Made by a program: the position numbers and the translations under genes
Part shown: piece by piece, positions 1-16,615 of the stretch
How positions within the stretch are numbered: position 1 is the first letter of the stretch
Layout of the letters: each line of letters opens with the position of its first letter
The notes under the pieces: generated by a model
What the model was told of the DNA's origin: nothing
Database searches by the model: none
What the model saw: only the letters and a program-made list of their open reading frames with translations
Origin: Azoarcus sp.
Lineage (GTDB): Bacteria > Pseudomonadota > Gammaproteobacteria > Burkholderiales > Rhodocyclaceae
Direction of reading: 5' to 3'
DNA length: 32,000 nt
Assembly: GCA_030604735.1 (NCBI GenBank)
Contig: JAUVVG010000030.1
Span: 12,984 to 44,983, forward strand

Positions 1-1170
1 CGTGCCCGCCACGAAGAGTCCGAACAAGACGATCACGACGTTGATCGATACCCCGGACATGATCAATATGGCGTACAGGCCGGTCATGACGAGAATGGAC
101 AGGTTTTCGTTGAAATTCTGAACCGCGATCGAGTGGCCTGCGCCCATCAGGATGTGCCCGCGATGCTGGAGCAGTGCATTCATCGGTACCACGAAGAATC
201 CCGCCAGGGCGCCGATGACCACCAGCATGATGACCGCGATCGGGACCGAACTGACCAGCGTCATGAACAGGACCACCAGACCCATCACGATACCGAGCGG
301 GATCACCCTCACCGAATACCGCAGACTGATCCAGCGCGCCGCGAGCATCGATCCGACCACGATACCGATCGCGACCACCCCTTGCAGCATCGACGCCTGG
401 GTGAGGTCGAAGCCGAGATTGTGCTCGGCCCACTTGATCACGATGAACTGCAGCGTCGCGCCGGCACCCCAGAACAGCGTGGTTACCGACAGCGAGATCT
501 GTCCGAGCTTGTCCCGCCACAGCAGCTTGAGGCAGTGCCCGAAGTCATGCAGCAGATACAGGGGGTTGTTCTTCAACGGCTTGTGATCGACGCCGGTGTC
601 CGGAACGTAGAAATTGAATACCGCGGCGAGTAGGTAAAGGAGGCTGACCAGCGCGATGGTTGCCTGGAATCCTGAATCGACCAAAGGGAGCTCAAGCGCG
701 TGAAACCAACCCAGTACCGAAGGATGGATCAGGATGCCGCCCATCACGATGCCAAGAATGATGGCGCCCACCGTGAGCGCCTCGATCCAGCCATTGGCCA
801 CCACCAGCAGGCGATGCGGAAGGTACTCGGTGAGAATGCCATACTTGGCGGGCGAATAAACCGCCGCACCGAGGCCGATGACTGCATAGGCGAACAATGG
901 GTGGCTGCCGAGAAACAGCATCAGGCAACCGCCGATCTTGATGGTGTTGCCGACCAGCATCACACGCCACTTGGGCATAGAATCGGCGAAGGCGCCGACA
1001 AAGGCTGCGAGCAGGACGTAGGACAGGGTGAAGAAAAGCTTGAGCAGCGGCTCGTACTGGTCGGGCGCGGCGATGTCTCGCAGCAGCGCGATCGCGATGA
1101 TCAGGAGCGCATTGTCGGCCAACGCAGAAAAAAACTGCGCTGCCATGATGATGTAGAAGCCCAGCGGCAT
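1..1170 (-). CDS. lplT: Lysophospholipid transporter LplT (MFS), 3' end outside window
   Basis: Not in the ORF track because its stop lies left of the window. Hand translation of the reverse complement from ATG 1170 gives MPLGFYIIMAAQFFSALADNALLIIAIALLRDIAAPDQYEPLLKLFFTLS... and stays open to base 1 (390 codons). It is strongly hydrophobic with a multi-TM pattern. The N-terminus resembles E. coli LplT (AQFLSAFGDNALL region). AGGAA lies just upstream of the ATG. Confidence 0.8.
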   Translation of the reverse strand, partial: MPLGFYIIMAAQFFSALADNALLIIAIALLRDIAAPDQYEPLLKLFFTLSYVLLAAFVGAFADSMPKWRVMLVGNTIKIGGCLMLFLGSHPLFAYAVIGLGAAVYSPAKYGILTEYLPHRLLVVANGWIEALTVGAIILGIVMGGILIHPSVLGWFHALELPLVDSGFQATIALVSLLYLLAAVFNFYVPDTGVDHKPLKNNPLYLLHDFGHCLKLLWRDKLGQISLSVTTLFWGAGATLQFIVIKWAEHNLGFDLTQASMLQGVVAIGIVVGSMLAARWISLRYSVRVIPLGIVMGLVVLFMTLVSSVPIAVIMLVVIGALAGFFVVPMNALLQHRGHILMGAGHSIAVQNFNENLSILVMTGLYAILIMSGVSINVVIVLFGLFVAGT

Positions 1171-1320
1171 CTTGTTCCTGCGCCCATGACCGAAACACGT
1201 GCGGGTTTATATCACGAAGCGATGGGACCTGCCTTGAGATATCGATAGGGAAGCGACGGATCCAATTTATTGGTCGAGTCGCCGGCGCAAAGCGGTCAAA
1301 TATGCTTAAATATCTCCTGA

Positions 1321-1333
1321 TAAACACAATTTA
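1321..1333. promoter_or_regulatory. Candidate LysR-type T-N11-A box in the lplT/LysR divergent intergenic region
   Basis: TAAACACAATTTA (T-N11-A) sits inside the dyad ATAAA-N5-TTTAT at 1320-1334, immediately followed by TTGACT (-35-like), about 50 nt upstream of the LysR ATG. Confidence 0.3.
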
Positions 1334-1382
1334 TTGACTAGCAGAAACCTTTCGCATCCCATGCCCATGACCGGGGCACGGC

Positions 1383-2339
1383 ATGTCAGGCTTGCTGCAC
1401 CCACCAAACGAGGCGATTGTGGCCGATCGCAGACTTCAGGTTTTCCACGCCGTAGCGAAGTACGGCTCCTTTACCCGCGCCGCCGAGCATCTTTTCATGA
1501 CGCAGCCGGCCGTCACCTTCCAGATCAAGCAGCTCGAGGAGCATTTCGATACCCGCTTGCTGGAACGTGGACATGGCAAGGTCAGCCTCACCCCGGCAGG
1601 CGAGATCGTCCTCGCCTATGCCGAGCGGATTCTCGATTTATCCGACGAGCTCGAATCGCGGGTGTCGGAGCTGACCGACGAGCTTGCCGGCGCCTTGACC
1701 ATCGGCACGAGCACCACCATCGCGGCCTATTGGTTGCCGCGACTGCTCGAGAGCTTCAAACGCAAGTACCCGAGGGTCATTCCCCGGGTCGTGGTCGGCA
1801 ATTCCCAATTGACCGAAGACCGGGTGGCCTCGCGGGAGATCGACCTCGGGCTGATCGAGATTGTTTCCGACCAGCCCGCGATAGAGCGTCGGACTGCGGC
1901 GCGGGATGAATTGCTGGTGATCTGCCAGCCCGGACATCCCTTGTCCAAGTACGCCTCGCTCACTGCCGAGAAATTGCTGGAGCATCCCTTCATTACCCGC
2001 GACTCGGGCAACGCCATCCGGGAGCTGGCGGAGAGCTTCTTCGAGTCGGCCGGCATCGATGTCGAGCAGCTTAGGATTTGTGCCGAGTTGGGCAGCCTCG
2101 CGACGGTCAAGTACCTGGCGTCCCAGGGACTGGGTTTCGCAATTGCCTCCAGGGCCGCGATCCAGCGCGATATCGGAGAAGGGCGGCTGGTCGCGATTCC
2201 GCTCGAACCCAAGTTGTACACCCCGCTCGAGGTTATCGTTCCAAAGGACAAGTTCCGTTCCCGACTGATCACCGTGTTCGCGGATCATGCCGCCGAACAA
2301 CTTGCCGGGATGGCCACCGAGGGCTCGGAGGACAACTGA
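1383..2339 (+). CDS. LysR-family transcriptional regulator
   Basis: 318 aa. The N-terminal HTH RLQVFHAVAKYGSFTRAAEHLFMTQPAVTFQIKQLE is typical of the LysR family, followed by a substrate-binding-type domain. It is divergent from lplT, and its stop overlaps the radA start (TGATG). Confidence 0.9.
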   Translation: MSGLLHPPNEAIVADRRLQVFHAVAKYGSFTRAAEHLFMTQPAVTFQIKQLEEHFDTRLLERGHGKVSLTPAGEIVLAYAERILDLSDELESRVSELTDELAGALTIGTSTTIAAYWLPRLLESFKRKYPRVIPRVVVGNSQLTEDRVASREIDLGLIEIVSDQPAIERRTAARDELLVICQPGHPLSKYASLTAEKLLEHPFITRDSGNAIRELAESFFESAGIDVEQLRICAELGSLATVKYLASQGLGFAIASRAAIQRDIGEGRLVAIPLEPKLYTPLEVIVPKDKFRSRLITVFADHAAEQLAGMATEGSEDN

Positions 2340-3712
2340 TGGCGAAGGCGAAAACCGCCTACGTCTGTGCTGACTGCGGCACGCAATCTCCTCGCTGGCA
2401 GGGGCAGTGCCCCCAGTGCAAGGCATGGAATACGCTGGCGGAGTCGGTGGTGGAGCAGGGCGGATCCGCCAGCAGTCGTTTCGTGGCGCTGGCTGGTACC
2501 TCCGGTCGGCTGCAACGACTGTCCGAACTCGAACCGCGTGAGGAACCTCGCACCCCGACCGGTATCGACGAGTTCGATCGTGTCCTTGGGGGCGGGCTGG
2601 TGCCGGGCGGGGTGGTGTTGATCGGCGGCGACCCGGGCATAGGAAAATCGACCTTGCTATTGCAGGCGCTGGCCGTACTGGCCGCCCGTGAGTCGGCAAT
2701 TTATGTAAGTGGGGAGGAGTCGGGCGAGCAGGTGGCCTTGAGGGCGCGGCGACTCAATCTCGATCCGGCCCATCTTCAACTGCTGCCCGAGATCAACCTG
2801 GAGCGTATCACCCAAGTGCTGAAGGACGCGCGTCCACGGATCGCCGTGATCGACTCCATTCAGACCGTATACTCGGAAGTTCTGCAGTCTCCGCCGGGGT
2901 CGGTCGCGCAGGTGCGGGAATGTGCCGCGCAACTGACCCGCTTCGCCAAGCAGAGCGGGACCAGCCTGATCATGGTCGGGCATGTCACCAAGGATGGCAC
3001 GCTGGCCGGGCCACGGGTGCTCGAGCACATGGTCGATACCGTGCTTTACTTCGAAGGCGACACCCATTCGAGCTTTCGTCTCGTGCGTGCCTTCAAGAAC
3101 CGCTTCGGCGCGGTCAACGAGCTGGGCGTCTTCGCAATGACCGACCGCGGTCTGCGGGGTGTCAGCAACCCGTCGGCGATCTTTCTGTCGCAGCACGAGC
3201 AACAGGTGCCGGGCAGTTGCGTGCTGATCACGCAGGAGGGCACCCGGCCGATGCTGGTCGAGATCCAGGCGCTTGTCGACGGTGCGCACAGCCCGAATCC
3301 GCGTCGACTGGGGGTTGGCCTCGAGCAGAACCGTTTGGCGATGCTGCTCGCCGTGTTGCATCGTCATGCCGGGGTTGTTTGTTTTGACCAGGATGTCTTC
3401 GTCAATGCGGTCGGCGGGGTCAAGATCACCGAGCCGGCAGCCGACCTTGCGGTTCTGCTTGCTATCGTGTCCTCGCTCCGCAGTCGTCCCTTACCGAAAG
3501 GGCTGGCCGTCTTCGGCGAAGTAGGGCTGGCAGGCGAGATTCGACCCGCACCGCGTGGACAGGACCGTTTGAAGGAGGCGACGAAACTCGGTTTTTCGAC
3601 GGCAATCATCCCGAAGGCCAATGCCCCGCGACAAGCCCCGGACGGAATGAAGATCATCGCTGTCGACCGGATCGAGGAAGCGATAGAACGGGCGCGGGAA
3701 ATCGAGTCCTGA
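2339..3712 (+). CDS. radA: DNA repair protein RadA/Sms
   Basis: MAKAKTAYVCADCGTQSPRWQGQCPQCKAWNT zinc finger, Walker A GDPGIGKST, KNRFG motif, and a Lon-protease-like C-terminal domain. Track ORF 2078..3712 carries a spurious 87-aa N-terminal extension; the ATG at 2339 fits homologues. Confidence 0.95.
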   Translation: MAKAKTAYVCADCGTQSPRWQGQCPQCKAWNTLAESVVEQGGSASSRFVALAGTSGRLQRLSELEPREEPRTPTGIDEFDRVLGGGLVPGGVVLIGGDPGIGKSTLLLQALAVLAARESAIYVSGEESGEQVALRARRLNLDPAHLQLLPEINLERITQVLKDARPRIAVIDSIQTVYSEVLQSPPGSVAQVRECAAQLTRFAKQSGTSLIMVGHVTKDGTLAGPRVLEHMVDTVLYFEGDTHSSFRLVRAFKNRFGAVNELGVFAMTDRGLRGVSNPSAIFLSQHEQQVPGSCVLITQEGTRPMLVEIQALVDGAHSPNPRRLGVGLEQNRLAMLLAVLHRHAGVVCFDQDVFVNAVGGVKITEPAADLAVLLAIVSSLRSRPLPKGLAVFGEVGLAGEIRPAPRGQDRLKEATKLGFSTAIIPKANAPRQAPDGMKIIAVDRIEEAIERAREIES

Positions 3713-3943
3713 GCGGCGGCAACTGAACGGAATCCAGCCGGGGCCGAAGTACAAAGTCGCAGGTTCGCGGTTGGTGGGTGCGGACATCACGAACCCGGAC
3801 ATCGGTTACAGCATGGTGCGCTCACCAGATCCAAAAAAATGGGGGCGTGCCCTCACCGAGCATGACATCCGCGGCAAATGATGGATTTCAGCGGCGGCGC
3901 ATGGCACATTACGCGCTTAGCCTCATATCCCTCGGATTGCAAG

Positions 3944-4609
3944 ATGTTCTACGGGATCACAGACCTCACGACCTTCATTCTGGGCACGATTTTCATCGTG
4001 CTGTTGCCGGGTCCAAACTCGCTCTACGTGATGTCTGCCGCCTCGCGCTGGGGCGTCGCCGCAGGGTACCGCGGTGCCTGCGGAATCTGCGTCGGCGACC
4101 TGATCCTGATGCTGCTCGCAGTCAGCGGCACCGCCTCGTTGCTGCGGACCACGCCGGAACTGTTCATGGTCATCAAGTACGCCGGCGCGGCCTATCTGGC
4201 ATGGGTCGGCATTGGTTTGTTGCGTTCAGCAATTCAAAGCTGGCGAAAGCAGGGCAGTTTCACCGAGGCTTCGGTCACGCAGAACGATGCGGTGGTGCGT
4301 AATAGTCCGCGTACATTCCGGACCGCGCTAGTGATCAGTTTGATGAACCCGAAGGCAATCCTTTTTTTCGTGTCGTTCTTCATTCAGTTCGTGGACCCGG
4401 CTTACGCCCATCCAGGACTCTCATTCATGATTCTGGGCGTCATCGTTCAGATCTGCAGCGCACTGTACCTGTCTGCGCTGATCTTCGGTGGGGCCTATCT
4501 TGCCGTTCAGTTCAGGAAGCGTCGTCGCCTCGCCGCGGGCGCAACCGGCGCCATAGGCGGGTTGTTCATCGCGTTCGGAGCAAAACTGGCGACCGCAACC
4601 TTGTCCTGA
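3944..4609 (+). CDS. leuE: LysE/RhtB-family amino-acid exporter (LeuE-like)
   Basis: MFYGITDLTTFILGTIFIVLLPGPNSLYV... resembles the E. coli LeuE N-terminus (IFIVLVPGPN). It is a multi-TM protein of 221 aa. The track start at 3878 adds 22 non-homologous residues. Confidence 0.75.
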   Translation: MFYGITDLTTFILGTIFIVLLPGPNSLYVMSAASRWGVAAGYRGACGICVGDLILMLLAVSGTASLLRTTPELFMVIKYAGAAYLAWVGIGLLRSAIQSWRKQGSFTEASVTQNDAVVRNSPRTFRTALVISLMNPKAILFFVSFFIQFVDPAYAHPGLSFMILGVIVQICSALYLSALIFGGAYLAVQFRKRRRLAAGATGAIGGLFIAFGAKLATATLS

Positions 4610-4747
4610 GCGATGCGGCGGGGGGTGGCGTCATGATGTCGACACCCAATCCCCGGCCTGAGAGGTTCCAAAGTCCGAACGCTTTCGACTTGGTGAGAGC
4701 GATCAGGCTTGTTCCGTCAGGGGCGCCGGACCGGTTTCATTCCCTCG

Positions 4748-5050
4748 TTACACGTACCGGACAGAATGGTGTCTGATATCGTAGTTTACATAATACAGAT
4801 TATCGTTCTTTCCTTCGTAGAATCTGGCGAGCCTTTCTATGCCCCGTGCATAGCCAAATGGGTCACGCGCTTTGGCCAGGATGATGCAAATCAGATGAAG
4901 TTCGAAAGGAGAGACGCCGAGCAATAGCAGGCGTTTTTTTTCGGCCAGGATTTTCCGGTACCAGGTGCGTCGACTGGGTCGCGTGGCTCGTGGGGTGAGC
5001 CTGCGTCGACAGTACAAGTTCGCGAGGTTTCGGGACCAGTCGGGGAGCAT
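4748..5050 (-). CDS. Hypothetical protein (Arg-rich N-terminus, possible winged-helix-like core)
   Basis: Starts at an internal ATG of track ORF 4748..5284: MLPDWSRNLANLYCRRRLTPRATRPSRRTWYRKILAEKKRLLLLGVSPFELHLICIILAKARDPFGYARGIERLARFYEGKNDNLYYVNYDIRHHSVRYV. The AT-richer 3' part looks coding. There is no clear RBS and I recognise no family. Confidence 0.4.
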   Translation of the reverse strand: MLPDWSRNLANLYCRRRLTPRATRPSRRTWYRKILAEKKRLLLLGVSPFELHLICIILAKARDPFGYARGIERLARFYEGKNDNLYYVNYDIRHHSVRYV

Positions 5051-5075
5051 GGGGTTTTTTAATCGACTGGGGGGA

Positions 5076-5241
5076 TCGGCGCAAGCGCCGACCGGGCTTC
5101 CTACGGACTGCGCTTCGCTCCGGTCCCTTCGGGACACGCCTTCGGCGTTCCTTCGGATCCCTTCCCCCTCCAGGCCTGTCGGCCTTCCGCGCTCCGCTTG
5201 GCCGCTGCGTTCCGCAGCGCGATCAGAGCCGCTACGCGGCT
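5076..5241. repeat. Array of short perfect GC hairpins with 2-4 nt loops
   Basis: TCGGCGC-AA-GCGCCGA (5076-5091), GTCCC-TTC-GGGAC (5123-5135), ACGCC-TTC-GGCGT (5136-5148), AGGCC-TGTC-GGCCT (5172-5185), CGCTGCG-TTC-CGCAGCG (5203-5219) and AGCCGC-TAC-GCGGCT (5227-5241). Confidence 0.7.
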
Positions 5242-5243
5242 GT

Positions 5244-5456
5244 GCCTTCTTCCCTGCCCTTGCGCTTTCCCGACCCCCTATCACTGCCGCCCTTTTGCCC
5301 GCTTGTGCCGCATCAAGTCGGAAAGAAAAGGGTAAAGGCTTCGCCCCGCTTCGCGGCCCTTGTCTTTCCTTTGTTGATACGGCCCGGCACGGTCAGGGCG
5401 ACAGCGATAGGGGGTACGGTGGGAAAAAAGACAAGAGTGCAGGGAAGAAGGAAGGC
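5244..5456. repeat. Imperfect inverted repeat of about 210 nt (rod-like hairpin, apex about 5351)
   Basis: CCTTCTTCCCTGC (5245-5257) is the exact reverse complement of GCAGGGAAGAAGG (5439-5451). Inner arms also pair: CCCCTATCACTGCCGCCC with GGGCGACAGCGATAGGGG, GTGCCG..ATCAA with TTGAT..CGGCAC, and GGAAAGA.AAGGG with CCCTT.TCTTTCC. The apical hairpin is CCGC-TTC-GCGG (5346-5356). Confidence 0.75.
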
Positions 5457-5522
5457 AAACCCGGATGGGCTCGAGCTCCAGGGGCCCGGTAGGTTTAACG
5501 ACGGAAAAAGCGAGGTGATGAG

Positions 5523-5762
5523 ATGACGATCAAAGTTCTGAAGACATACAGGCGCGAACAACCAGGGCAAACCCCGTTTAAGGTAATGACCCGCGTGTAT
5601 TTTGATGACTATTTGGAAGAATACACAGTCGGACTATTTGTCGACGGGAAGAAGCAGAAGGGCGCGACCTACTTCACCGACGATAAAGACGATGCCCTGC
5701 AAACCGCGCAGTACATGAGGAACCACCTGGACGAGATTGTAGAGGGAGTGGGACGGTCATGA
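5523..5762 (+). CDS. Hypothetical protein, 79 aa (prophage accessory gene)
   Basis: ATG is preceded by GAGGTG. The sequence is complex and non-repetitive (MTIKVLKTYRREQPGQTPFKVMTRVYFDDYLEEYTVGLFVDGKKQKGATYFTDDKDDALQTAQYMRNHLDEIVEGVGRS). It lies on the strand opposite the phage operon, has lower GC, and its stop overlaps the next ATG (ATGA). Confidence 0.6.
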   Translation: MTIKVLKTYRREQPGQTPFKVMTRVYFDDYLEEYTVGLFVDGKKQKGATYFTDDKDDALQTAQYMRNHLDEIVEGVGRS

Positions 5763-5974
5763 AAATCAGGCCTAGCAGTAGCAACGCGTTCGGAATCAGA
5801 TTCACAGGATACGATATGGTATGGGACATCCGGACAGATATGTTTCCGTGGAGATACATGATACAAGCAGAGCTCGGCGCATTGGATGCGCCGGACACTT
5901 TACCAGGGGGGATCATGATCGAGTACCTGGAAGGCACGTATGGGATGCTGCCATCAGTGGCAAAACGAAACTAA
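5759..5974 (+). CDS. Hypothetical protein, 71 aa (ATGA-coupled to the 79-aa ORF)
   Basis: ATGA overlap at 5759-5762. Sequence: MKIRPSSSNAFGIRFTGYDMVWDIRTDMFPWRYMIQAELGALDAPDTLPGGIMIEYLEGTYGMLPSVAKRN. It is followed 5 nt later by the hairpin (5979-6007) that carries the 29-bp repeat (5982-6010). I recognise no family. Confidence 0.5.
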   Translation: MKIRPSSSNAFGIRFTGYDMVWDIRTDMFPWRYMIQAELGALDAPDTLPGGIMIEYLEGTYGMLPSVAKRN

Positions 5975-5981
5975 CTAACCT

Positions 5982-6010
5982 GGATAGGAGGGGGACTCCT
6001 GTCCAGGCTG
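5982..6010. repeat. 29-bp direct repeat, copy 1 (hairpin-forming)
   Basis: GGATAGGAGGGGGACTCCTGTCCAGGCTG is identical to 6206-6234. The hairpin CCTGGATAGGAG-GGGGA-CTCCTGTCCAGG spans 5979-6007 and has one T.G pair on the plus strand. Confidence 0.95.
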
Positions 6011-6034
6011 AAGTATGAGATGAGAGGCAGAGTG

Positions 6035-6175
6035 ATGAACGACCGAGAAGAAAACATATACAACGGGTTCAAAATATTAATAATATTGATCGGATCGATA
6101 GCGATCGGATATGAACTCGGCAGCGGAGTTGGAATTGCGGCATTCTGTTTTTCTGTTGTAATGAAGTTGAAATAG
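6035..6175 (+). CDS. Small hydrophobic peptide, 46 aa (not in track)
   Basis: Hand translation gives MNDREENIYNGFKILIILIGSIAIGYELGSGVGIAAFCFSVVMKLK, with one predicted TM segment. GAGAGG lies upstream. This is the AT-richest part of the window and sits exactly between the two 29-bp repeats. Confidence 0.4.
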   Translation: MNDREENIYNGFKILIILIGSIAIGYELGSGVGIAAFCFSVVMKLK

Positions 6176-6198
6176 GTGGGCTTGAAAACAGAGAAGAA

Positions 6199-7173
6199 CT
6201 AGCCGGGATAGGAGGGGGACTCCTGTCCAGGCTGGACAACCGGCAGAGCGAACGGCAATGGGCGATCCATTGCCGTTCTGCATTGGAAGTCGGTCATGTC
6301 GAGAATCTTCCCATCGTTGCCGAAGCAGCGACAGGCACGAGCGTTCATGATGCAGCCATGGATCGGTTCAAGTCGATCAGCAAAGACCCAGTCGGATATA
6401 CCGTCAGAGACCGGTATAACGCGCTGCCTCACCGGTGGTTCCGGGGAAGCAGCGCGAGAGCCCTCCCCCACACCCCCGACGGGGCTTTGCAGGATGGAAA
6501 CGACTTCACTGGTATCGGATGCGACACCGAAGGCGGTGGCGATCATGCCGTCCGAGTTCGCGATGCGGGTCACGACCCATCCGACGAGCAGGACCAGGAC
6601 CACACCCATGATGATGATCTTGCGGGGTATCTTGCGCTTAACGGTATGAATCGTGGCTGACTTGTAGAGGTCGAAGAGTTTCTTGTCGTATCGCCAGATT
6701 TCCATGTCGGCCGCGTCGCGTTGCTGGCGGTCGTTTGGATCGAGAACGGCATGCTGCCACTTGTAAAGTGTGGTCTGCTGGAGGCCAGCGGGGCGCATCA
6801 AATGGATATGAGCCGGGGAGCCACCGCCGCCGAGGTGTTCCCTCACCTGGTGGTGGACCTTGGTCGGATACTGAGTCGCAATGAGGAAATCGAAACCCCG
6901 GTGACGGTGTTTGTCGAGGTCGACAATCTCGCCTTCCTGGGAGCGTCCTGGCTTGCCTGTCGCAGGCCAACGCTGGTGGACTTCGTCGATGACGATGAAG
7001 GCACCATCGGCGCACTGGCGCCAGTCGTCGGGGAGCGGATCGACGCCATCCAGCTTGAGGCCATCGACGTTGGAGTAGACCGGGCGGCCTTGCTTGACCG
7101 CTTCAACGGTCTCGCGCATGAGGAACAGCGACTTCCCAGAACCCGGGGAGCCGGTCACGAGCGAAATGGGCAT
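6199..7173 (-). CDS. Filamentous-phage assembly ATPase pI (Zot-like)
   Basis: MPISLVTGSPGSGKSLFLMRETVEAV... Walker A at the N-terminus, IVIDEVH Walker B-like motif, a central TM segment (IIIMGVVLVLLVGWVV) and a Cys-containing C-terminal domain. The start ATG 7173 overlaps the upstream stop (TAATG). The track start at 7275 is an extension. Confidence 0.9.
   Translation of the reverse strand: MPISLVTGSPGSGKSLFLMRETVEAVKQGRPVYSNVDGLKLDGVDPLPDDWRQCADGAFIVIDEVHQRWPATGKPGRSQEGEIVDLDKHRHRGFDFLIATQYPTKVHHQVREHLGGGGSPAHIHLMRPAGLQQTTLYKWQHAVLDPNDRQQRDAADMEIWRYDKKLFDLYKSATIHTVKRKIPRKIIIMGVVLVLLVGWVVTRIANSDGMIATAFGVASDTSEVVSILQSPVGGVGEGSRAASPEPPVRQRVIPVSDGISDWVFADRLEPIHGCIMNARACRCFGNDGKILDMTDFQCRTAMDRPLPFALPVVQPGQESPSYPG
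6206..6234. repeat. 29-bp direct repeat, copy 2 (inside the 3' end of the zot-like gene)
   Basis: Identical 29-mer. It encodes the last residues (..VVQPGQESPSYPG) of the pI/Zot ORF on the minus strand. Confidence 0.95.
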
Positions 7174-7454
7174 TAGTTGGACTTCCCTATGAAGATTTGG
7201 GCGGCCTGGATTGCGATCCGGGCCGAGAGGCCCGAGAGAACCGCCGAGAGAGCCACCCCAAAGCCCGCCATCCAAAGAATCTGAGCAGCAGCCGGAAGCA
7301 GTCCCGAAAGATTAGAGAGAACATGGCCCACCCATTCATTGAAAAGCGGTTCGATGACAACGTAAGTGCCGATGCCGAGACCCGCCCCGACGAGAATTCG
7401 GGCGACGGCAGAGACCATAATCCACATACCGACATAGAACAGCATGCCTTGCAT
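7173..7454 (-). CDS. Putative minor coat/assembly membrane protein (pVI-like)
   Basis: 93 aa and very hydrophobic (MQGMLFYVGMWIMVSAVARILVGAGLGIGTYVV...). It lies between the pIII-like and pI genes as in other inoviruses, with TAATG overlaps on both sides. Confidence 0.6.
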   Translation of the reverse strand: MQGMLFYVGMWIMVSAVARILVGAGLGIGTYVVIEPLFNEWVGHVLSNLSGLLPAAAQILWMAGFGVALSAVLSGLSARIAIQAAQIFIGKSN

Positions 7455-8782
7455 TACGATCGCCTCCAGCCGACAAGAATCATGACTGCCGCGAGCCAGC
7501 CGGTGGCGATCACCAGGGGTCGAACAGCAGTTGCGAAATCACAAAACGGGTCATATTTGACCTGGACAGCGCCGAGGCCGATGCTCAAGTTCATAGGTGC
7601 GGGGCAGGTGCCGGACGACGGTAGGCCGAAGTTCTGCGCCGAGAGTTGGACGGGATCGAGTTCGGGGAGGTCGACACTTTCCGGGTCGTCTGCCTCATCA
7701 CGGAACCAGTCGGCCAGATCGCAAACGATCGTTGCCCAGTCGCAGAAGCCAGGAAGTTCGAATGGGGGTGGCGGTTCGACAGGGGGGTTCGTGGGATTAA
7801 TATGCTCAGGTGCGACGTTAGGGTCGACTTGCGGATTACCTTCCGGGTCCGCCGTCGTGAGAGGTTCCCGGAAGGGATCGAGACGGAGACGCCAGGGCGA
7901 CTCGGGTGTCGGATCGGGGGTTATGCGGACCTTGTCTTGCCAGGGCTGACCGGTGAGCGGATCGGTGTAGGGGTTTCCGAGGGGTTCGACGAATGGCGTA
8001 ATCTCGGGAACCTGTACAGGCAATGGCAAGTGGCGAGCAACATCCGATAAAACATGAGCAGGCCAGTTAGCGGTCGTGACCGTGTTCCACTGAGAATCCC
8101 CTGCTACTTGCACTTGTCCAACACAGAAACCACCATTCAAAACCAAGTTCGTTGGACACACATCCGTTTGATGACGGGTAACCCCCTGGCCACCCGTCCA
8201 AACCAAAACGCCATTTTGATAATGCCGGTAGAGAAGTTCCGGCGCAGAATACCCTATGACTTGATATGTATTGATCCCACTGTTGAAGTACGAAACGAAA
8301 GCAGCGGCATACTGCAAAAAATCACACTGAACACCCGATGGTGATCCCGGCGCTGTGCATCCAGGAACAGAACCAGTGAAAAAACCGGACGGAATGTCAT
8401 ACGCGACAGGAGTGGACTCGGGAATAGACCAATCACCGTTAACGAAATCCATCGAAAACTCTGCCAAGAGCCACGCCGCTACAGATGTGCCGACAAACAA
8501 GAGCGGGTTAGCGCGTACAAAGGGCGCAGCATATTGTCCCCCGTTTGCCGCCATACGAAGCGAAGCAGGCACAGTGACCGACTTTCCGGCTACCTGTACC
8601 CTTGCAGCCGCTTGGAACGCAGAGCCGCTCCAAGCAACGGACGAAGGCGGCTTATAAAAAGAACCGGAAGTAGCTTGAGACCATCCACTCGGGGGGGTCG
8701 CCGCCGCGTATTGCGACGATGCAACACCGGGGAGCAGCAGCACGAGAATCAGTACAGCAAGAGCCATGCGCCCCCCAGGCAT
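7454..8782 (-). CDS. Putative adsorption protein (pIII-like)
   Basis: Lies between the coat genes and the pVI/pI genes. It has a signal-peptide-like N-terminus (MPGGRMALAVLILVLLLPGVASS), a Pro-rich linker (PDPTPESP.., PTNPPVEPPPPFELP) and a C-terminal anchor (LVIATGWLAAVMILVGWRRS). An alternative ATG is at 8767. Confidence 0.65.
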   Translation of the reverse strand: MPGGRMALAVLILVLLLPGVASSQYAAATPPSGWSQATSGSFYKPPSSVAWSGSAFQAAARVQVAGKSVTVPASLRMAANGGQYAAPFVRANPLLFVGTSVAAWLLAEFSMDFVNGDWSIPESTPVAYDIPSGFFTGSVPGCTAPGSPSGVQCDFLQYAAAFVSYFNSGINTYQVIGYSAPELLYRHYQNGVLVWTGGQGVTRHQTDVCPTNLVLNGGFCVGQVQVAGDSQWNTVTTANWPAHVLSDVARHLPLPVQVPEITPFVEPLGNPYTDPLTGQPWQDKVRITPDPTPESPWRLRLDPFREPLTTADPEGNPQVDPNVAPEHINPTNPPVEPPPPFELPGFCDWATIVCDLADWFRDEADDPESVDLPELDPVQLSAQNFGLPSSGTCPAPMNLSIGLGAVQVKYDPFCDFATAVRPLVIATGWLAAVMILVGWRRS

Positions 8783-8824
8783 GCCAGCATGACATAGTAG
8801 CCTTCCATGATTTTCTCCCTGGAT

Positions 8825-8848
8825 GGGACGAGGGTCGCCCCCCGTCCC
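8825..8848 (-). terminator. GC hairpin between coat gene and pIII-like gene (possible attenuator)
   Basis: GGGACGAGGG-TCG-CCCCCCGTCCC has about 10 bp of stem with one mismatch and no clear U-tract. Its position mirrors the partial terminator after gene VIII in Ff phages. Confidence 0.3.
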
Positions 8849-8860
8849 GGTTGAGTCAGA

Positions 8861-8989
8861 TCAGAAGAACGATGCCTTGATCCAGCGGAAGGCAAAGACG
8901 ACGACAGCGACACCGATGATGGCGAGGCCAACGGTTTCGATGTCAGTACCCGCATCAGCAATGGCGGTATTTACGGAAGTGAGATCCAT
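8861..8989 (-). CDS. Major coat protein, Pf3-type, leaderless (copy 2)
   Basis: Hand translation gives MDLTSVNTAIADAGTDIETVGLAIIGVAVVVFAFRWIKASFF (42 aa), with GGAGAA upstream. The C-terminus closely resembles the Pf3 coat (..GGAIIVLAAVVLGIRWIKAQFF). It is not in the track because it is under 60 aa; track ORF 8749..8961 is in another frame. Confidence 0.85.
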   Translation of the reverse strand: MDLTSVNTAIADAGTDIETVGLAIIGVAVVVFAFRWIKASFF

Positions 8990-9007
8990 GTGAGATTCTC
9001 CAAAAAT

Positions 9008-9136
9008 TTAGAAAAATGAACCCTTGATCCAGCGGAACAAGAAGACCACTACAGCGACACTAATGATCGCGAGACCGAGAGACTCGATGTCCGTCGATAC
9101 CAAACCAATAGAGTCCATTACGCCTTCGATAGACAT
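9008..9136 (-). CDS. Major coat protein, Pf3-type, leaderless (copy 1)
   Basis: Starts at an internal ATG of track ORF 9008..9196: MSIEGVMDSIGLVSTDIESLGLAIISVAVVVFLFRWIKGSFF (42 aa), with GGAG 5 nt upstream. It is a paralogue of 8861..8989. Confidence 0.85.
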   Translation of the reverse strand: MSIEGVMDSIGLVSTDIESLGLAIISVAVVVFLFRWIKGSFF

Positions 9137-9138
9137 AC

Positions 9139-9318
9139 CTATCTCCGGTTGAGAACGACGTAGGCGATCTGGCGCGCGGCCCAGGCTGTGGCCCAAACCG
9201 CAAAAATCGCCCCGCTTATCACCAGCCCATCTTCAGCGGATAGAGCCGGTAATCCTGTGACGTACTGAACCCAGGCAGTACAGTCGTTATTCGTGATTTC
9301 CGTGCAGACGAAGTACAC
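9139..9318 (-). CDS. Hypothetical small membrane protein, 59 aa, GTG start
   Basis: Hand translation gives (V)YFVCTEITNNDCTAWVQYVTGLPALSAEDGLVISGAIFAVWATAWAARQIAYVVLNRR. The GTG immediately follows, in frame, the TAA of the 25-aa ORF. The stop lies 2 nt before the coat copy 1 start. Confidence 0.35.
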   Translation of the reverse strand: MYFVCTEITNNDCTAWVQYVTGLPALSAEDGLVISGAIFAVWATAWAARQIAYVVLNRR

Positions 9319-9396
9319 TTAGAACACCCTTGCGAACATCACACCGAAGGTGACCGTGAGGCCGAACGAACCGAGAAACCAGATTGCTGATTGCAT
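9319..9396 (-). CDS. Hypothetical 25-aa hydrophobic peptide (pVII/pIX-size)
   Basis: MQSAIWFLGSFGLTVTFGVMFARVF, with AAGGGGAA upstream, 10 nt after the stop of the preceding micro-ORF. Confidence 0.4.
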   Translation of the reverse strand: MQSAIWFLGSFGLTVTFGVMFARVF

Positions 9397-9406
9397 GGGA
9401 TTCCCC

Positions 9407-9544
9407 TTATGAGCGTAGAAGCGCAAGCGCGTTGGAGACGATCGGAGAGGTATAAAGAGCAACGCCTGCAAGAAGTAAGGCGAAGGCTACGGACCCCAAA
9501 CACGAGACGAACAGGACCCATTCCCAGAACGAATAGATTTGCAT
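9407..9544 (-). CDS. Hypothetical 45-aa membrane peptide
   Basis: MQIYSFWEWVLFVSCLGSVAFALLLAGVALYTSPIVSNALALLRS, with AGGAA upstream. The longer track ORF 9407..9775 runs through the noncoding region downstream of rep. Confidence 0.5.
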   Translation of the reverse strand: MQIYSFWEWVLFVSCLGSVAFALLLAGVALYTSPIVSNALALLRS

Positions 9545-9735
9545 GGGGTTCCTTGATAATTGGGATAGCGATCGGTTACGTTCTGGCGCACTTATGAGCG
9601 CACAGGATTCAATGAACTGACGTTGGGCGGTCGGCGCGGGGTGGGCGGCGAGCCTGCCCACTCCCCCGCCGCCGCCGTCCTCGACAGGCCCACGATTGGG
9701 TTCCCACGCTTGCGCGTCATCGGCACGCTTGAGCA

Positions 9736-10881
9736 TTACGCCGCCCTCCTCGAGACATCGGGCAGCCCGTACCACTCCGGAGCCTGGAGGGGTTGAAGGG
9801 TGAAGGACGGCAGGCCATCAAGCAGCGTCTGGAGTTGATCGACGGAACCGTCTGACTTGATAGGACGCGGTTCGGACGCGTCGATGCCGTAGTCGCGGAG
9901 AGCCTTGACGTGCCGGAAGTAGGTGGCGCGACTGTAGAGTTCGCGGAGATCGTCGCCCCTGATCCAGTGAAGGGCCGCCGATCGGACCTTGGTCGGCATT
10001 TCGGAGACGATGCGAGCGGCCCGATCGGGCGTGACATCGTGCAGGAATCGGGTTTCGGCCCGGAACAAACTGATGATCTTGGCCATGTTGGCATCCCCTA
10101 TGAACCTAAGCGCGTTGTCGCGTAAAAAGTCTTTACCCCATTTGCATTCGATACGGACGAGTCCGAGATCGCGAGCGAATTGATATTCCTGGCTGGACTT
10201 GACCCTTTTCTTGGCTTCATCGCCCTTGGCGTGGTCGAGCATTTCCTGAGCTTTGCGATAAACGACGATGCGTTTGTGAAGCTTGCCGCTCCGCTTTCCA
10301 AAGACCACGGTCTGAGTACCGTAGACGCCTTTGGAAAGCCGGGCAGCACGAAGGCCGGTGAAGTACCGCATCACTTCGATGGAGAGCTTGTCATTGCCGG
10401 CAGCCATGTTCTCGGTGACGTGGAGTTCGCGAAGAACGGCACCGGTCCATTCGGTCCAGAGGCCGAGGTCGTGGTCATGCTTGGAGACGGACGCCTTCGC
10501 ACGGCATTCCCCAGGCGTGAAGCGCGGTAGGTCGTGGGCCTGGACGATGTCAGAGGCCTTGTCGATGGTATCGACGATGTCGTAATTCCACACGTTGTCG
10601 GGGCGGTCGAAGCGCCCGACGTTACCGGAGAGTTCAACGTTCCTGCCGTCGCAGCGCACCAGGAGCGAGGTGTCATGTGAGCCGCGACGCTGAAGGCGTG
10701 GAACCTGATAGGTGACGTTGTCGCCGTCTGGGGTGAGCACACACCACTTGCGCCCGTCCGTCGTTTCCATCATTTCGAATGACTTGCCCCGGACCCGGAC
10801 GCCATCGGAGACGATCGGCAGATCGATATCGTCTACCGCGTGGCGTTGGGCGAAGGAAAGCCAGTCGATAAAGACGCTCAT
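9736..10881 (-). CDS. Rolling-circle replication initiator (gene II/CRI-type phage Rep)
   Basis: The MSVFIDWLSFAQ.. N-terminus (IDWL motif) and its size are typical of filamentous-phage replication proteins. The ATG at 10881 forms an ATGA overlap with the upstream ORF stop. The track start at 10890 is a GTG. Confidence 0.8.
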   Translation of the reverse strand: MSVFIDWLSFAQRHAVDDIDLPIVSDGVRVRGKSFEMMETTDGRKWCVLTPDGDNVTYQVPRLQRRGSHDTSLLVRCDGRNVELSGNVGRFDRPDNVWNYDIVDTIDKASDIVQAHDLPRFTPGECRAKASVSKHDHDLGLWTEWTGAVLRELHVTENMAAGNDKLSIEVMRYFTGLRAARLSKGVYGTQTVVFGKRSGKLHKRIVVYRKAQEMLDHAKGDEAKKRVKSSQEYQFARDLGLVRIECKWGKDFLRDNALRFIGDANMAKIISLFRAETRFLHDVTPDRAARIVSEMPTKVRSAALHWIRGDDLRELYSRATYFRHVKALRDYGIDASEPRPIKSDGSVDQLQTLLDGLPSFTLQPLQAPEWYGLPDVSRRAA

Positions 10882-11246
10882 CGGCCCCACCCATGTACGT
10901 AGGGATTCGAAGCCTCAAGATCGGCAAGGTCGTAACCCATCGCAACAAGACGAGCACTAACCGAGTTCAAACCCGACGAACTAGTCTCAAATTGAGACTC
11001 CACAGCACTCTTTACTTGTACGTGCTGTGAAGGGCCGAACCGGCCGCTGGAGGTGGTCGGGACGATCGGGGTGGTGAAGGAGTCGGCACGGTAGAAAAGC
11101 TCAAGTGCACCATCAGTGATCCGGAGGACCGATTGGTCCCCGTCACGCTGAAGGCGCACCAGCTCAGTGAGGGAGTCAACGAAAGAACGCGAGCGGAACA
11201 GTTCGAATGTTCCGCTTCGCGTTTCGCGTTCGAGGACGTAGGCCAT
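10878..11246 (-). CDS. Hypothetical protein, 122 aa
   Basis: Translationally coupled on both sides (TAATG at 11246, ATGA at 10878-10881). The sequence is complex and I recognise no family. Confidence 0.6.
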   Translation of the reverse strand: MAYVLERETRSGTFELFRSRSFVDSLTELVRLQRDGDQSVLRITDGALELFYRADSFTTPIVPTTSSGRFGPSQHVQVKSAVESQFETSSSGLNSVSARLVAMGYDLADLEASNPYVHGWGR

Positions 11247-11925: not shown

Positions 11926-12348
11926 ATGGATATAGAAGCAAAGTGCTCGCAGGTAATGCGCAGAAACGGGTGGACGCAGCGTGAGCTAGCTACCGCTTTA
12001 GGCATAAGCGAAACGACATTGTCAAACGTCTTGAAAGGGCGTCGATCGTTGCCCGTTCATGCGTTTGTCAAATTAGAAAGGATGAGGGGAATAGACGATA
12101 AATCAATCGTCGATGAACTGATCCGAGCGGCCGCAAGTGTGGCGGCCGTTGTCATTTTGTTTTCGCCAGGGGGGAGCGAAGGGCCACGAACGGCGCCGGA
12201 TTCCGATACGAGAAGTGCACAGATTACAGATTATAACGATACAGAAGAAACGACTGAGAATGCGTATGCGGACAGTTCGTGCTCAAAGCCCTGTCGGAGT
12301 TTTTTACATCAGCCGGTCATCAGCATGATCAGAATCCCTTTTGCGTGA
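11926..12348 (+). CDS. XRE-family HTH repressor (phage c-repressor-like)
   Basis: ATG 11926 is preceded by AGGAGG. MDIEAKCSQVMRRNGWTQRELATALGISETTLSNVLKGRRSLP is a classic Cro/CI-type HTH. It is divergent from the phage operon. The C-terminal half is non-homologous (hydrophobic AAASVAAVVILF followed by an acidic tail). Confidence 0.8.
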   Translation: MDIEAKCSQVMRRNGWTQRELATALGISETTLSNVLKGRRSLPVHAFVKLERMRGIDDKSIVDELIRAAASVAAVVILFSPGGSEGPRTAPDSDTRSAQITDYNDTEETTENAYADSSCSKPCRSFLHQPVISMIRIPFA

Positions 12349-15492: not shown

Positions 15493-15517
15493 TTGGATGG
15501 TCTTCCCTTCACAGAAA

Positions 15518-15546
15518 ATGGCGCCCGAAGCTGGGGCGCCATTTTT
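15518..15546 (+). terminator. Rho-independent terminator after typA (potentially bidirectional)
   Basis: ATGGCGCCC-GAAGCTG-GGGCGCCAT stem followed by TTTTT, with an A-run (AAAA) upstream. Confidence 0.8.
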
Positions 15547-15727
15547 GTTGAACGAGCGGCAAGTCCACTTACCCGCCGAAAAGTCCCTGTCGTAGCTTGG
15601 AATAAATCCAGTGCGGAGTTCGATGGCGCCGCCGCGCGGCGCCTGCTCCCTTGCTTGCTTGCTCGATAGGTCTCGGTCGTCGCGCGCTACGCTCTATAGT
15701 CGCTCGCAACGACCTTCTCACAAGCAC

Positions 15728-16615
15728 TCAGTTCTCCGCCGCGCCGCGGGTCGCAAGATAAGCCGAGAAGTCGTCAGAGACCTCAGGGTGACGTAGCGCG
15801 AACTCCACCGTCGCCTTCAGGTAGCCGAGCTTGGAACCGCAGTCGTAACGGTGTCCGCGGAACTGGTAGGACAGGACCGCTTCCTCCTTCAGCAGCGATG
15901 CGATCGCGTCGGTGAGTTGGAGTTCACTCCCCGCGCCTGGCTTCAATGCGCGCAGATGCTGGAAAATACGGGGCGTCAGGATGTAGCGCCCGACGACTGC
16001 CTGGGTGGTCGGAGCATCCTCGGGCTTGGGCTTCTCGATGATACCGGTGACCCGTTGCAAGTCGCCGTTCTGGGTTTCGGTGCTGACGATACCGTACTGT
16101 CGCGTCTCTTCGCGCGGTACGTTCATCGTACCCAGTACAGAGCAACGGTTGTAGTTGTAGACGTCGACCATTTGTTTCATGATCGGCGCTCCGCCGTGGT
16201 TGTCGAGCAGATCGTCGGCCAGGATCACCGCGAACGCTTCGTCGTCGCTGACCACATGCGATGCGCACAGCACCGCATGGCCCAGGCCGAGCGCTTCGGA
16301 CTGACGGATGTAGATGCAATTGACCCCGGTTGGAACCGTTTTCCGCACCAGGTCTAGCATGGCCTGCTTGCCGCGAGCCTCGAGTTCGGTCTCCAGTTCA
16401 TAAGCCTTGTCGAAATGATCCTCGATCGCCCGTTTGGTCCGACCGGTGATGAAAATCATCTCGGTGATGCCGGCGGCAACCGCCTCCTCCACCGCGTACT
16501 GGATCAGCGGCTTGTCGACGATGGGCAGCATTTCCTTGGGGCTGGCCTTGGTCGCCGGCAGAAAGCGGGTTCCCATTCCGGCGACCGGAAAAACGGCTTT
16601 GGTGATCTTCTTCAT
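15728..16615 (-). CDS. galU: UTP--glucose-1-phosphate uridylyltransferase
   Basis: [40 protein letters not shown] is the signature GalU N-terminus. 295 aa. Confidence 0.95.

Follow-up and report, generated by a model that had tools for sequence, protein, structure and literature searches.

Signals that function as folded single-stranded DNA (ssDNA) are known from several mobile elements. The intergenic region of the Ff phages (M13/f1/fd) holds hairpin A as packaging signal as well as the hairpins B and C of the minus-strand origin, which are recognised by RNA polymerase. The same enzyme acts at Frpo, the ssDNA promoter of the F plasmid that was reportedly studied by Masai and Arai in 1997, and the conserved upstream repeat (CUP) elements of other plasmids are said to have been treated by Delver and Belogurov in the same year. 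Here, we analyse a dense block of hairpins (positions 5076-5456) within a 32,000-nt stretch of Azoarcus sp. DNA (GenBank assembly GCA_030604735.1, contig JAUVVG010000030.1), which we refer to as the window. The block is part of the prophage of a filamentous phage (inovirus), i.e., of a group whose integrative members have largely unmapped origins and packaging signals.

Among conjugative plasmids, signals of the Frpo/ssi type have been described for F (Frpo1, Frpo2) and ColIb-P9 (ssi1-3) (PMC9849209; PMC11541004; PMC12672017). They are increasingly seen as a switch for the expression of plasmid anti-defence genes ahead of the double-stranded state, and definitions of ssDNA promoters have so far relied on a handful of enterobacterial sequences and on searches for promoter boxes in hairpins. 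The CUP of the leading-region regulon of IncN (R46/pKM101) and IncW plasmids is described as a duplex promoter with an ArdK operator (PMC5371602; PMC6289460). Finally, DNA mini-hairpins of the form GCGNAGC are extraordinarily stable, bind single-strand binding protein (SSB) poorly and occur in the complementary-strand origins of G4, St-1 and alpha3, in RSF1010 ssiA and in the early promoters of N4 (PMC13037366), as well as in the mapped origin of the Xanthomonas inovirus phiLf (bioRxiv 10.1101/2023.12.30.573655). Where they mark ssDNA regions of replication initiation, SSB exclusion is their proposed role (PMC13037366; bioRxiv 10.1101/2023.12.30.573655).

The block combines traits of these systems. 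Read 5' to 3' on the packaged strand, it begins with a short conserved leader, continues with a 213-nt imperfect hairpin (rod) that has two GNA mini-hairpins at its tip and ends, after a linker of two further mini-hairpins, in a multi-hairpin module of about 135 nt that is closed by a long-range stem. Together, these parts make up a composite signal of folded DNA on the strand that the integrated inovirus packages: the block is structured, conserved, covarying and strand-specific, it is homologous to plasmid elements, and antisense genes lie immediately 5' of it on the single strand. We are highly confident that it is a functional ssDNA structure homologous to those plasmid elements. While ssDNA promoters, ssi signals, minus-strand origins of the Ff type and GNA mini-hairpins at ssDNA origins are already known, the 135-nt module as a defined, covarying unit, its very broad distribution and its occurrence in inovirus intergenic regions, fused to a lineage-specific rod beside antisense genes, are undescribed as far as Rfam and literature searches show.

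Structure and strand specificity of the block

The packaged strand of inoviruses has the same sense as the phage genes, such that the relevant single strand is the minus strand of the window. We compared the DNA folds of region 5040-5500 with shuffled controls, a check proposed by the initial annotation of the block. The real sequence is superior on both strands, with -118.9 kcal/mol (z -4.5) for the plus and -126.2 kcal/mol (z -5.9) for the minus strand, and none of 100 dinucleotide shuffles was as good in either case. A scan of the whole window for perfect stems of at least 5 bp with loops of 2-5 nt returned all six perfect GC mini-hairpins that had been annotated (Table 1), i.e., six within 166 nt (5076-5241) compared to about 1.3 GC-rich hairpins per 400 nt in the remaining window. 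Four of them belong to the module, and the other two form the linker to the rod. The long imperfect inverted repeat annotated at 5244-5456 was likewise recovered in several blocks by an inverted-repeat search, namely the arms 5245-5260/5436-5451 (94% complementary, including the perfect 13-mer CCTTCTTCCCTGC), 5273-5293/5395-5415 (90%) and 5320-5332/5357-5369 (92%), and its apical hairpin CCGC-TTC-GCGG was found at 5346-5356.

The block is non-coding as annotated, with the long open reading frames (ORFs) across it being mirror-image artefacts; this does not extend to the 3' part of the minus-strand ORF running from 5075 to 4748, which lies outside the block and is a real small phage gene. A tRNA scan returned no tRNA. 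A motif in the rod resembling a Rep nick site (CTTGAT, 5318-5305) was considered as plus-strand origin and dropped, since it is not conserved in the related prophage L084 introduced below.

The mini-hairpin half of the block is the conserved module. Four inovirus blocks (window, L084, L069, L138) have the motifs AAGCGGAGCGCG, AGGGAT and AGCCCGG in common, and the pattern AAGCGGAGCGCGSA-N6-36-AGGGAT is found in at least 120 metagenome contigs and 18 IMG/VR contigs, with visible homology of the pattern-derived contigs over the roughly 130 nt that follow. From 93 aligned non-redundant copies, we derived a covariance model (R1) with five helices. Here, MAFFT and RNAalifold recovered only part of the module structure, while the closing stem was specified by hand and then checked. 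R1 has a single match in the window (5065-5211, minus strand; 61.4 bits, E-value 1.8e-11), which covers the full model length with the invariant motifs in order. Among the 164 Zot-anchored loci of our comparison set, R1 yields eight matches with E-values of at most 0.01, all eight on the Zot strand. No Rfam family matches at gathering or permissive thresholds; matches to hya and sul1 (E-values 0.4-2) were dismissed as chance.

The helices of the module covary. Over 124 aligned matches, 94.2% of the cells are paired compared to 77.5% in shuffles, and the covariation score of 0.337 is reached by none of 500 shuffles (0.089) and drops to at most 0.064 when partners are slid. Two-sided changes are observed in 13 of the 20 module pairs, among them all six pairs of the long-range closing stem, which reads GGCGTC/GACGCC, GGTGAA/TTCAC (L084), GTCGAG/CTCGAC (L069) or GGGGGA/TCCCCC (window).

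The loops discriminate between the two strands. What reads as TTC on the plus strand is GAA on the packaged (minus) strand, and triloop hairpins of the form C-GNA-G outnumber their C-TNC-G complements by 265 to 2 over 124 modules and by 17 to 0 in the four inovirus blocks. In the block of the window itself, the viral strand forms seven C-GNA-G hairpins, and hairpins of the complementary type are absent. Across all Zot loci, three or more such hairpins cluster on the viral strand in 20 loci and on the other strand in one. Furthermore, five of the window's 36 GCGNAGC heptamers fall into 5112-5354, all on the minus strand, where about 0.3 are expected. The window-wide count is at chance level (36.3 expected), i.e., the enrichment is local and one-stranded. 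Exact GCGAAGC and GCGTAGC heptamers both occur in the block. This asymmetry argues for a function as ssDNA of one defined strand. Together with the covarying stems and with a conservation among further inoviruses that is confined to the Zot strand, it bears out the initial proposal of a folded-ssDNA function: judged from sequence, the block very probably works as folded ssDNA on the packaged strand. It has the C-GNA-G triloop motif in common with the GCGNAGC/GCGNNAGC mini-hairpins of known origins (G4, St-1, alpha3, RSF1010 ssiA, SL3 of the phiLf origin). Those origins, however, contain one or few mini-hairpins in unrelated contexts, whereas up to seven are embedded here in a conserved 135-nt architecture next to a rod.

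Relatives in inoviruses and plasmids

An nhmmer search of the 164 Zot-anchored loci revealed a homologous block in prophage L084 of Azoarcus indigens (9744-10153, E-value 1.7e-26), even though the Zot proteins of the two phages are only 24% identical. It also folds into a rod and mini-hairpins (z -8.0), and pairwise alignment with the window shows 77% column identity. Three loops switch from GAA to GTA or GCA, i.e., all of them remain GNA. As in the window, the L084 block comes after an antisense ORF, a geometry that is repeated in L067 (Uliginosibacterium). It is followed by an ORF that, read by eye, resembles a tyrosine integrase, and not by a dif-like site. L067 and L069 (a betaproteobacterial metagenome-assembled genome) show the same layout of leader, rod and mini-hairpins with different rod sequences (z -14.5 for the rod fold of L069), and the IMG/VR locus L138 carries a copy of the module. 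All these blocks as well as the L138 copy lie on the Zot strand. Alignments and sequence comparison further show that the leader motif recurs in L084, L067, L069, L039 and L057.

A profile of the rod only matches nothing but inovirus loci (L350, L084, L067 and L426), again always on the Zot strand. The rods of the window and L350 are 71% identical and both stable, with two-sided compensatory changes in 11 pairs, and the apical hairpin CCGC-GAA-GCGG is replaced in L350 by GCGC-GCA-GCGC. Thus, the compensatory changes among related prophages that the initial annotation suggested looking for are present in the rod. In circular relatives, the module is located in the gap ahead of the replication genes.

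Other searches for relatives returned little. A BLAST comparison of the block and its 15-kb surroundings with 50,697 phage records gave no match, scans of IMG/VR loci anchored on single proteins gave no relatives, and matches of the short DNA patterns GGGAYCGRAGCGAAGCG and ACAAAGGAAAGNCAANGG in IMG/VR were mostly chance. The closest Zot proteins are about 50% identical, and their contigs show only one or two GC hairpins after Zot. In the two closest contigs of phage size (L003, 4440-4500; L004, 4990-5050), we observe directly after Zot a conserved hairpin CGCGCCG-N5-CGGCGCG followed by GGGGGTA, which the window lacks; it is a candidate for a short packaging signal or terminator of this phage group. 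In the Acidovorax/Paracidovorax prophages L039 and L057, the leader motif GTACCGGGCCCCTAGATTCCGAGCC precedes a rod whose apical hairpins are GNA-tipped (around 9520-9830). Neither locus matches the module model strongly, and both may represent a more distant branch of the inovirus block.

The module is also found in plasmids. Only 17 of the 138 pattern-derived loci encode Zot, and others carry DUF932, C-5 methylase, AbiE and OLD/UvrD genes. When searching PLSDB with blastn, one module variant matched 5,022 places in 1,764 records, 87% of which are conjugative, spanning Escherichia, Klebsiella, Pseudomonas, Burkholderia and other genera; a second variant matched 170 records. The initial statement that the architecture corresponds to nothing described is thus wrong: the mini-hairpin half is a member of a very large family that conjugative plasmids also carry in their leading regions, where copies lie by the Frpo1/Frpo2 positions of F and, in IncN plasmids, where CUP repeats are described.

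In the Acidovorax plasmid pAOVO01 (L436), the module is situated upstream of ssb and surrounded by DUF932, methylase and exonuclease genes. All these genes are encoded on the opposite strand, and a rod of about 290 nt lies 5' of the module. In a MOBF/MPF_T plasmid, three model copies (five places according to blastn) lie among ArdR, antirestriction, Hha and DUF905 genes, which are also all on the opposite strand. All five copies in R46 and R388 (Table 1) run antisense to the ccg, ard and ssb genes, and four of the five lie between such genes, with the first R46 copy adjoining stbC. Given where the origin of transfer lies and that the transferred strand (T-strand) is, as a rule, the template of leading genes (PMC11541004), these copies are presumably located on the transferred strand.

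An unfiltered search of the F plasmid (L440) revealed partial matches to the module core at 10094-10173 and 15482-15561, apparently on the T-strand. The first reads GCGTC-AGGGATGGAAGCCCGCCAGGGCGGAGAC...CTCCGTTCACGACAGCCCG-CCCCACCAGGGG-GACGCC, i.e., the module core with its closing stem. In T-strand sense, the matches are situated just 3' of two upstream regions, that of ssb and that of the ORF at 16033 (which we take to be ygeA). In these regions, Frpo2 and Frpo1, which drive ssDNA-only early expression, have been placed (PMC9849209). Family-wide, the 5' flank of the module (320 nt) is more strongly folded than a 3' flank of equal length in 88 of 96 loci, with a minimum free energy (MFE) of -77 compared to -52 kcal/mol (z -3.5 vs. 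-1.6 in a subsample). Window, other inoviruses and plasmids including F therefore have a single-strand layout in common, namely gene template, long hairpin and module.

Some plasmids and other elements contain more than one copy of the module. Two to five copies in the same orientation occur in several of them (L376, L342, L352, L313, L436, L437). On the minus strand of L376 (9103-9571), four short matches of about 58 nt follow each other with a spacing of 137 nt, as if truncated modules were arrayed in tandem, and two full copies flank a C-5 methylase gene in L342 (11991-12140 and 14375-14524). The hairpin of about 290 nt in pAOVO01 (4374-5000) holds a degenerate second module-like sequence (CAGCGGAGCGCGGGG ... 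GAAGCCCGGCCGGAGGGC), which hints at an origin of long hairpins from inverted or duplicated module copies.

Proposed role on incoming single-stranded DNA

Since the module family is located beside ssDNA promoters in the first-entering region of conjugative plasmids, the block most likely starts transcription or priming on incoming ssDNA. We therefore favour a Frpo/ssi-like single-strand signal for complementary-strand priming and/or early expression of the adjoining antisense ORFs, to which we assign a probability of roughly 0.6. When the viral single strand enters the cell, GNA mini-hairpins and rod would stay folded and largely free of SSB. A host enzyme, most likely RNA polymerase and alternatively a primase, would recognise the fold and begin RNA synthesis on the viral strand. 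The RNA could then prime the synthesis of the complementary strand and/or serve as early mRNA for the ORFs within 5523-6175. In addition, the very stable fold may delay duplex conversion and thereby prolong single-strand-only expression; Frpo has been reported as such a roadblock in F (bioRxiv 10.64898/2026.01.09.698686).

The three small ORFs between Zot and the block are encoded on the complementary strand, i.e., the packaged strand is their template, and we consider them candidate early genes driven from the folded block. The first one (5523-5762) starts 67 nt past the rod, with the viral strand as template. It matches phrog_7884 (E-value 1.3e-14), while a search among 5.8 billion proteins returned no homologues; similarity to the antisense ORF of L084 was not found. 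Genes for this ORF and for 5759-5974 are included in the annotation of a sister contig (see below).

As for Frpo/ssi, the strand on which the block appears to act is the one that enters the cell single-stranded, a long imperfect hairpin is situated immediately upstream of genes templated by the entering strand, and several copies of the same orientation are possible. Moreover, the module core (AGGGAT ... ACAGCCCG, closing stem GCGTC/GACGC) directly follows, on the T-strand of F, each of the two upstream regions in which Frpo1 and Frpo2 are placed. In contrast to Frpo/ssi, no sequence homology between the rod of the window and plasmid Frpo hairpins is detectable, no reconstituted -35/-10 boxes were found in the window, and the host element is a phage and not a plasmid.

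Several points weigh against the favoured role. A consensus scan of 4900-5700 on either strand, complemented by inspection of the 3' arm by eye, found no sigma-70-like -35/-10 pair, such that the defining property of Frpo, i.e., reconstituted promoter boxes, is not shown for the phage. The homology of the rod is confined to inoviruses and does not extend to plasmid Frpo hairpins. The antisense ORFs are without known function, and RNA polymerase, primase and PriA are indistinguishable by sequence. The F matches are partial and weak (22.4 and 13.6 bits) and convincing only by inspection of their motifs. Furthermore, the alignment used for the covariation statistics was fitted to the model, although the raw sequences show these pairs as well. 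A crude count of ORF orientations on the metagenome loci showed no antisense bias, but gene calling was poor there and we regard the count as uninformative. Finally, all evidence is computational and the mechanism is inferred.

Which other roles could account for the block? The initial annotation proposed an origin, packaging or attachment structure, of which an origin or priming role is best supported. Compared to the Ff intergenic region, the block is also a dense non-coding array of hairpins on the packaged strand after the morphogenesis genes (here downstream of Zot) that functions, as proposed, as folded ssDNA, including a primer for the complementary strand made by RNA polymerase. It differs in that no homology of sequence or structure was found (50,697 phage records; Rfam), in the much longer rod and in the antisense genes that abut the block; to our knowledge, the Ff region contains neither GNA mini-hairpin arrays nor a closed multi-branch module. 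One may thus read the rod as the packaging (morphogenetic) signal in analogy to Ff hairpin A and the module as the minus-strand origin, which is compatible with the role favoured above and differs only in what the rod does. The conservation of the rod in inoviruses only and always on the packaged strand, the preservation of its structure by compensatory changes and its place downstream of Zot, as the Ff packaging signal sits after the last morphogenesis gene, speak for this possibility. Still, we consider it improbable: the rod is missing from the nearest Zot relatives (L003, L004), in which Zot is followed by short GC hairpins only, the module copies of plasmids have a structured 5' flank as well although plasmids package nothing, and a hairpin duplicated at 5962-6010/6186-6234, at the Zot stop, provides an alternative candidate. 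In addition, the mapped signals of integrative Xanthomonas inoviruses are hairpins of 20-26 nt (bioRxiv 10.1101/2023.12.30.573655). If the element acted mainly as duplex DNA, it would be a CUP-like regulatory or promoter cassette that is bound by a repressor, with the hairpins being a by-product of operator symmetry or cassette recombination. The module is indeed homologous to elements at the 5' ends of leading-region operons of R46 and R388, where we matched CUP positions by description; in R46 these are the ccg and ard operons with their described CUP repeats, ArdK sites and promoters (PMC5371602; PMC6289460), and several copies of one orientation per plasmid would fit a repeated cassette. 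Duplex operators, however, predict neither the bias of 265 to 2 for GNA over TNC loops on one strand, nor a covarying long-range stem that spans about 100 nt, nor a sense strand that is always the one entering as ssDNA in phages and plasmids alike. The structured, strand-specific module also differs from what the CUP papers describe (PMC5371602; PMC6289460), and no ArdK-like gene was seen among the annotated prophage ORFs, albeit no search aimed at ArdK was made. A cassette that acts mainly as duplex is thus clearly unlikely.

Covarying stems downstream of the Zot operon, on its coding strand, would also be expected for a structured RNA transcribed in Zot direction, i.e., a small RNA, a cis-regulatory element or a terminator. 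We rate this very unlikely, since C-G-closed GNA triloops are a stability motif specific for DNA (PMC13037366), no Rfam family matches, the sense strand of the plasmid copies is antisense to every neighbouring gene and no T-run of the terminator type comes after the hairpins. With its apparent use of dif-like sites and its lack of an integrase, the prophage brings to mind the folded attP of CTX-phi, an ssDNA hairpin used for XerCD integration. This part of the initial proposal is contradicted and next to negligible: the only dif-like site (4784-4805) lies about 270 nt outside the block, none is found within 5076-5456 when allowing up to 3 mismatches, and the two inverted dif-like XerC/XerD sites that form the stem in CTX-phi were not found in the block. 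Besides, the homologous L084 block adjoins the integrase-like ORF mentioned above, and the module is abundant in plasmids. The least probable explanation is a dispersed chromosomal repeat of the host (REP type), which the initial annotation had raised and which the GC-rich, palindromic and extragenic nature of the block might suggest. It is contradicted by the single module copy and single hairpin cluster in the 32-kb window, by their location inside a prophage, by the missing consensus among the six stems and by the relatives in phages and plasmids of many genera.

A wider and more tentative interpretation, which we hold possible though rather less probable than its negation, goes beyond the Frpo/ssi-like role of this one block. 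That is, inoviruses and proteobacterial conjugative plasmids or integrative and conjugative elements might share one ancient, exchangeable cassette for the establishment of ssDNA. Its SSB-resistant GNA module of about 135 nt would mark the site, a long hairpin would be added by each lineage, and both together would recruit the transcription or priming machinery of the host. In phages, the cassette might act both as minus-strand origin and as a promoter that drives antisense early genes from ssDNA only, possibly with roles in anti-defence or the lysogeny decision, i.e., a form of zygotic induction in a virus.

Independent of such a scenario, the module is a conserved, covarying signature that can be found by a covariance model, that marks such sites in more than 1,700 plasmids and many metagenomic elements and that is absent from Rfam. 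It links plasmids to phages, given that the same module occurs on the packaged strand of a filamentous-phage intergenic region beside antisense genes. If the proposed function is true, the block offers candidates for a minus-strand origin and for an early promoter active only on ssDNA in integrative inoviruses, which would suggest that phages and plasmids exchange cis-acting parts for establishing incoming ssDNA.

Prophage setting and further observations

The block was initially placed in a non-coding region of a filamentous prophage, which agrees with the inovirus genes around it and with a phage ORF and a dif-like junction beyond it. The prophage comprises 8 kb on the minus strand between host genes; its features are listed in Table 1.

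Table 1. Coordinates of the block, its parts, the surrounding prophage and selected plasmid copies of the module (window positions unless a plasmid is named).
Feature	Position	Strand	Remark
Leader 5' of rod	5457-5511	minus	motif (A)C(TG)ACCGG-N7-8-(G)AG...GAGCCC; between rod and ORF start codon at 5523
Rod	5244-5456	minus	213-nt imperfect hairpin; inverted repeats and folds
Rod apex	5356-5346, 5345-5337	minus	two abutting C-GNA-G mini-hairpins, CCGC-GAA-GCGG and GGC-GAA-GCC
Linker between rod and module	5203-5241	minus	two perfect mini-hairpins, both with counterparts in L084 alignment
Linker hairpin	5241-5227	minus	AGCCGC-GTA-GCGGCT
Linker hairpin	5219-5203	minus	CGCTGCG-GAA-CGCAGCG
Module	5065-5211	minus	conserved, structured, ~135 nt; covariance model R1
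Module: invariant motif	5199-5188	minus	AAGCGGAGCGCG
Module: P1 hairpin	5184-5173	minus	GGCC-GACA-GGCC
Module: closing stem, 5' half	5168-5163	minus	GGGGGA
Module: invariant motif	5162-5157	minus	AGGGAT
Module: hairpin			TCC-GAA-GGA; between AGGGAT and ACGCC hairpin
Module: hairpin	5148-5136	minus	ACGCC-GAA-GGCGT
Module: hairpin	5135-5123	minus	GTCCC-GAA-GGGAC
Module: heptamer	5118-5112	minus	GCGAAGC
Module: hairpin			TCC-GTA-GGA; between GCGAAGC and AGCCCGG
Module: invariant motif	5099-5093	minus	AGCCCGG
Module: terminal hairpin	5091-5076	minus	TCGGCGC-TT-GCGCCGA
Module: closing stem, 3' half	5075-5069	minus	TCCCCC
Mini-hairpin	5076-5091		7 bp, loop AA
Mini-hairpin	5123-5135		5 bp, loop TTC; abuts 5136-5148
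Mini-hairpin	5136-5148		5 bp, loop TTC; abuts 5123-5135
Mini-hairpin	5172-5185		5 bp, loop TGTC
Mini-hairpin	5203-5219		7 bp, loop TTC
Mini-hairpin	5227-5241		6 bp, loop TAC
Antisense ORFs (three, small)	5523-5762, 5759-5974, 6020-6175	plus	between Zot and block; span 5523-6175
Inovirus core genes	6199-11246	minus	Pfam and PHROG matches
Zot/pI	6199-7173	minus
pVI (DUF2523)	7173-7454	minus
pIII-like	7454-8782	minus
Coat B paralogue	8749-8961	minus
Coat B	9008-9196	minus
Rep/pII	9736-10881	minus	G2P domains
ORF	10878-11246	minus
Divergent helix-turn-helix (HTH) repressor			within prophage
Small basic phage ORF	4748-5075	minus	contains ...RTWYRKILAEKKRLLLLGVSPFELHLICIIL...; between block and prophage end
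Dif-like site	4783-4810	minus	AAGAACGATAA-TCTGTA-TTATGTAAACT (XerC arm, centre, XerD arm); unique in window
Second, degenerate dif-like site	12214-12240	minus	TATCGTTATAA-TCTGTA-ATCTGTGCACT; found as direct repeat
Host genes left of prophage			LysR, RadA, LysE
Host genes right of prophage	from ~12.7 kb		PNP_UDP_1 phosphorylase, BipA, LigA, ZipA
Module copies in R46 (IncN)	22039, 23751, 26256		model R1 matches
Module copies in R388 (IncW)	20024, 24030		model R1 matches

A search for the canonical dif consensus gave no match in the window; the divergent site at 4783-4810 came from a direct-repeat search. It is the probable junction of prophage and host on the LysE side, while the degenerate site at 12214-12240 is a candidate for the other junction, i.e., the prophage appears to integrate via divergent dif-like sites and without an integrase. 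Sites related to the former are found at the phage ends in L002, L003 and L004. Since the ORF at 4748-5075 and the dif-like junction lie beyond the block, the block is inside the prophage and the integration site outside the block. Frames resembling this ORF come after Zot in L002, L003 and L004 when reading the sequences by eye, and nhmmer matches its region on DNA level in L055, L004, L064 and L003. We also note that this small basic ORF reads through the left dif-like site and that, with respect to Zot, this site has one orientation in window and L004 and the inverse one in L002 and L003.

The same prophage is present in the sister assembly GCA_029289255.1 (contig L001, 99.95% identical) with 9 single-nucleotide differences in 17 kb, none of which affects the block. 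A related prophage (L002, JGI 3300051197, 1-6324), whose Zot is 50% identical, is integrated near the same chromosomal genes (PNP_UDP_1 and a BipA-like gene). In this case, EgtB/EgtD-like genes lie in between, and the prophage points with its Zot end to the PNP_UDP_1/BipA side. This suggests an integration hotspot shared by both prophages, possibly the dif region of the chromosome.

Two further repeats were observed within the prophage. The coat genes at 8749-8961 and 9008-9196 are tandem paralogues with 76% identity over an 85-nt DNA repeat (8863-8947/9010-9094); both small genes are annotated as Phage_Coat_B in the sister contig, which looks like a duplication of the major coat protein gene. 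Moreover, a 49-nt direct repeat with 86% identity (5962-6010 and 6186-6234) forms a strong hairpin, CCTGG(A/G)TAGGAG-GGGGAC-TCCTGTCCAGG, and could be a terminator, a packaging signal or a scar of module insertion. One copy overlaps the stop codon of Zot and the other lies 224 nt downstream, such that the pair brackets the ORF at 6020-6175.

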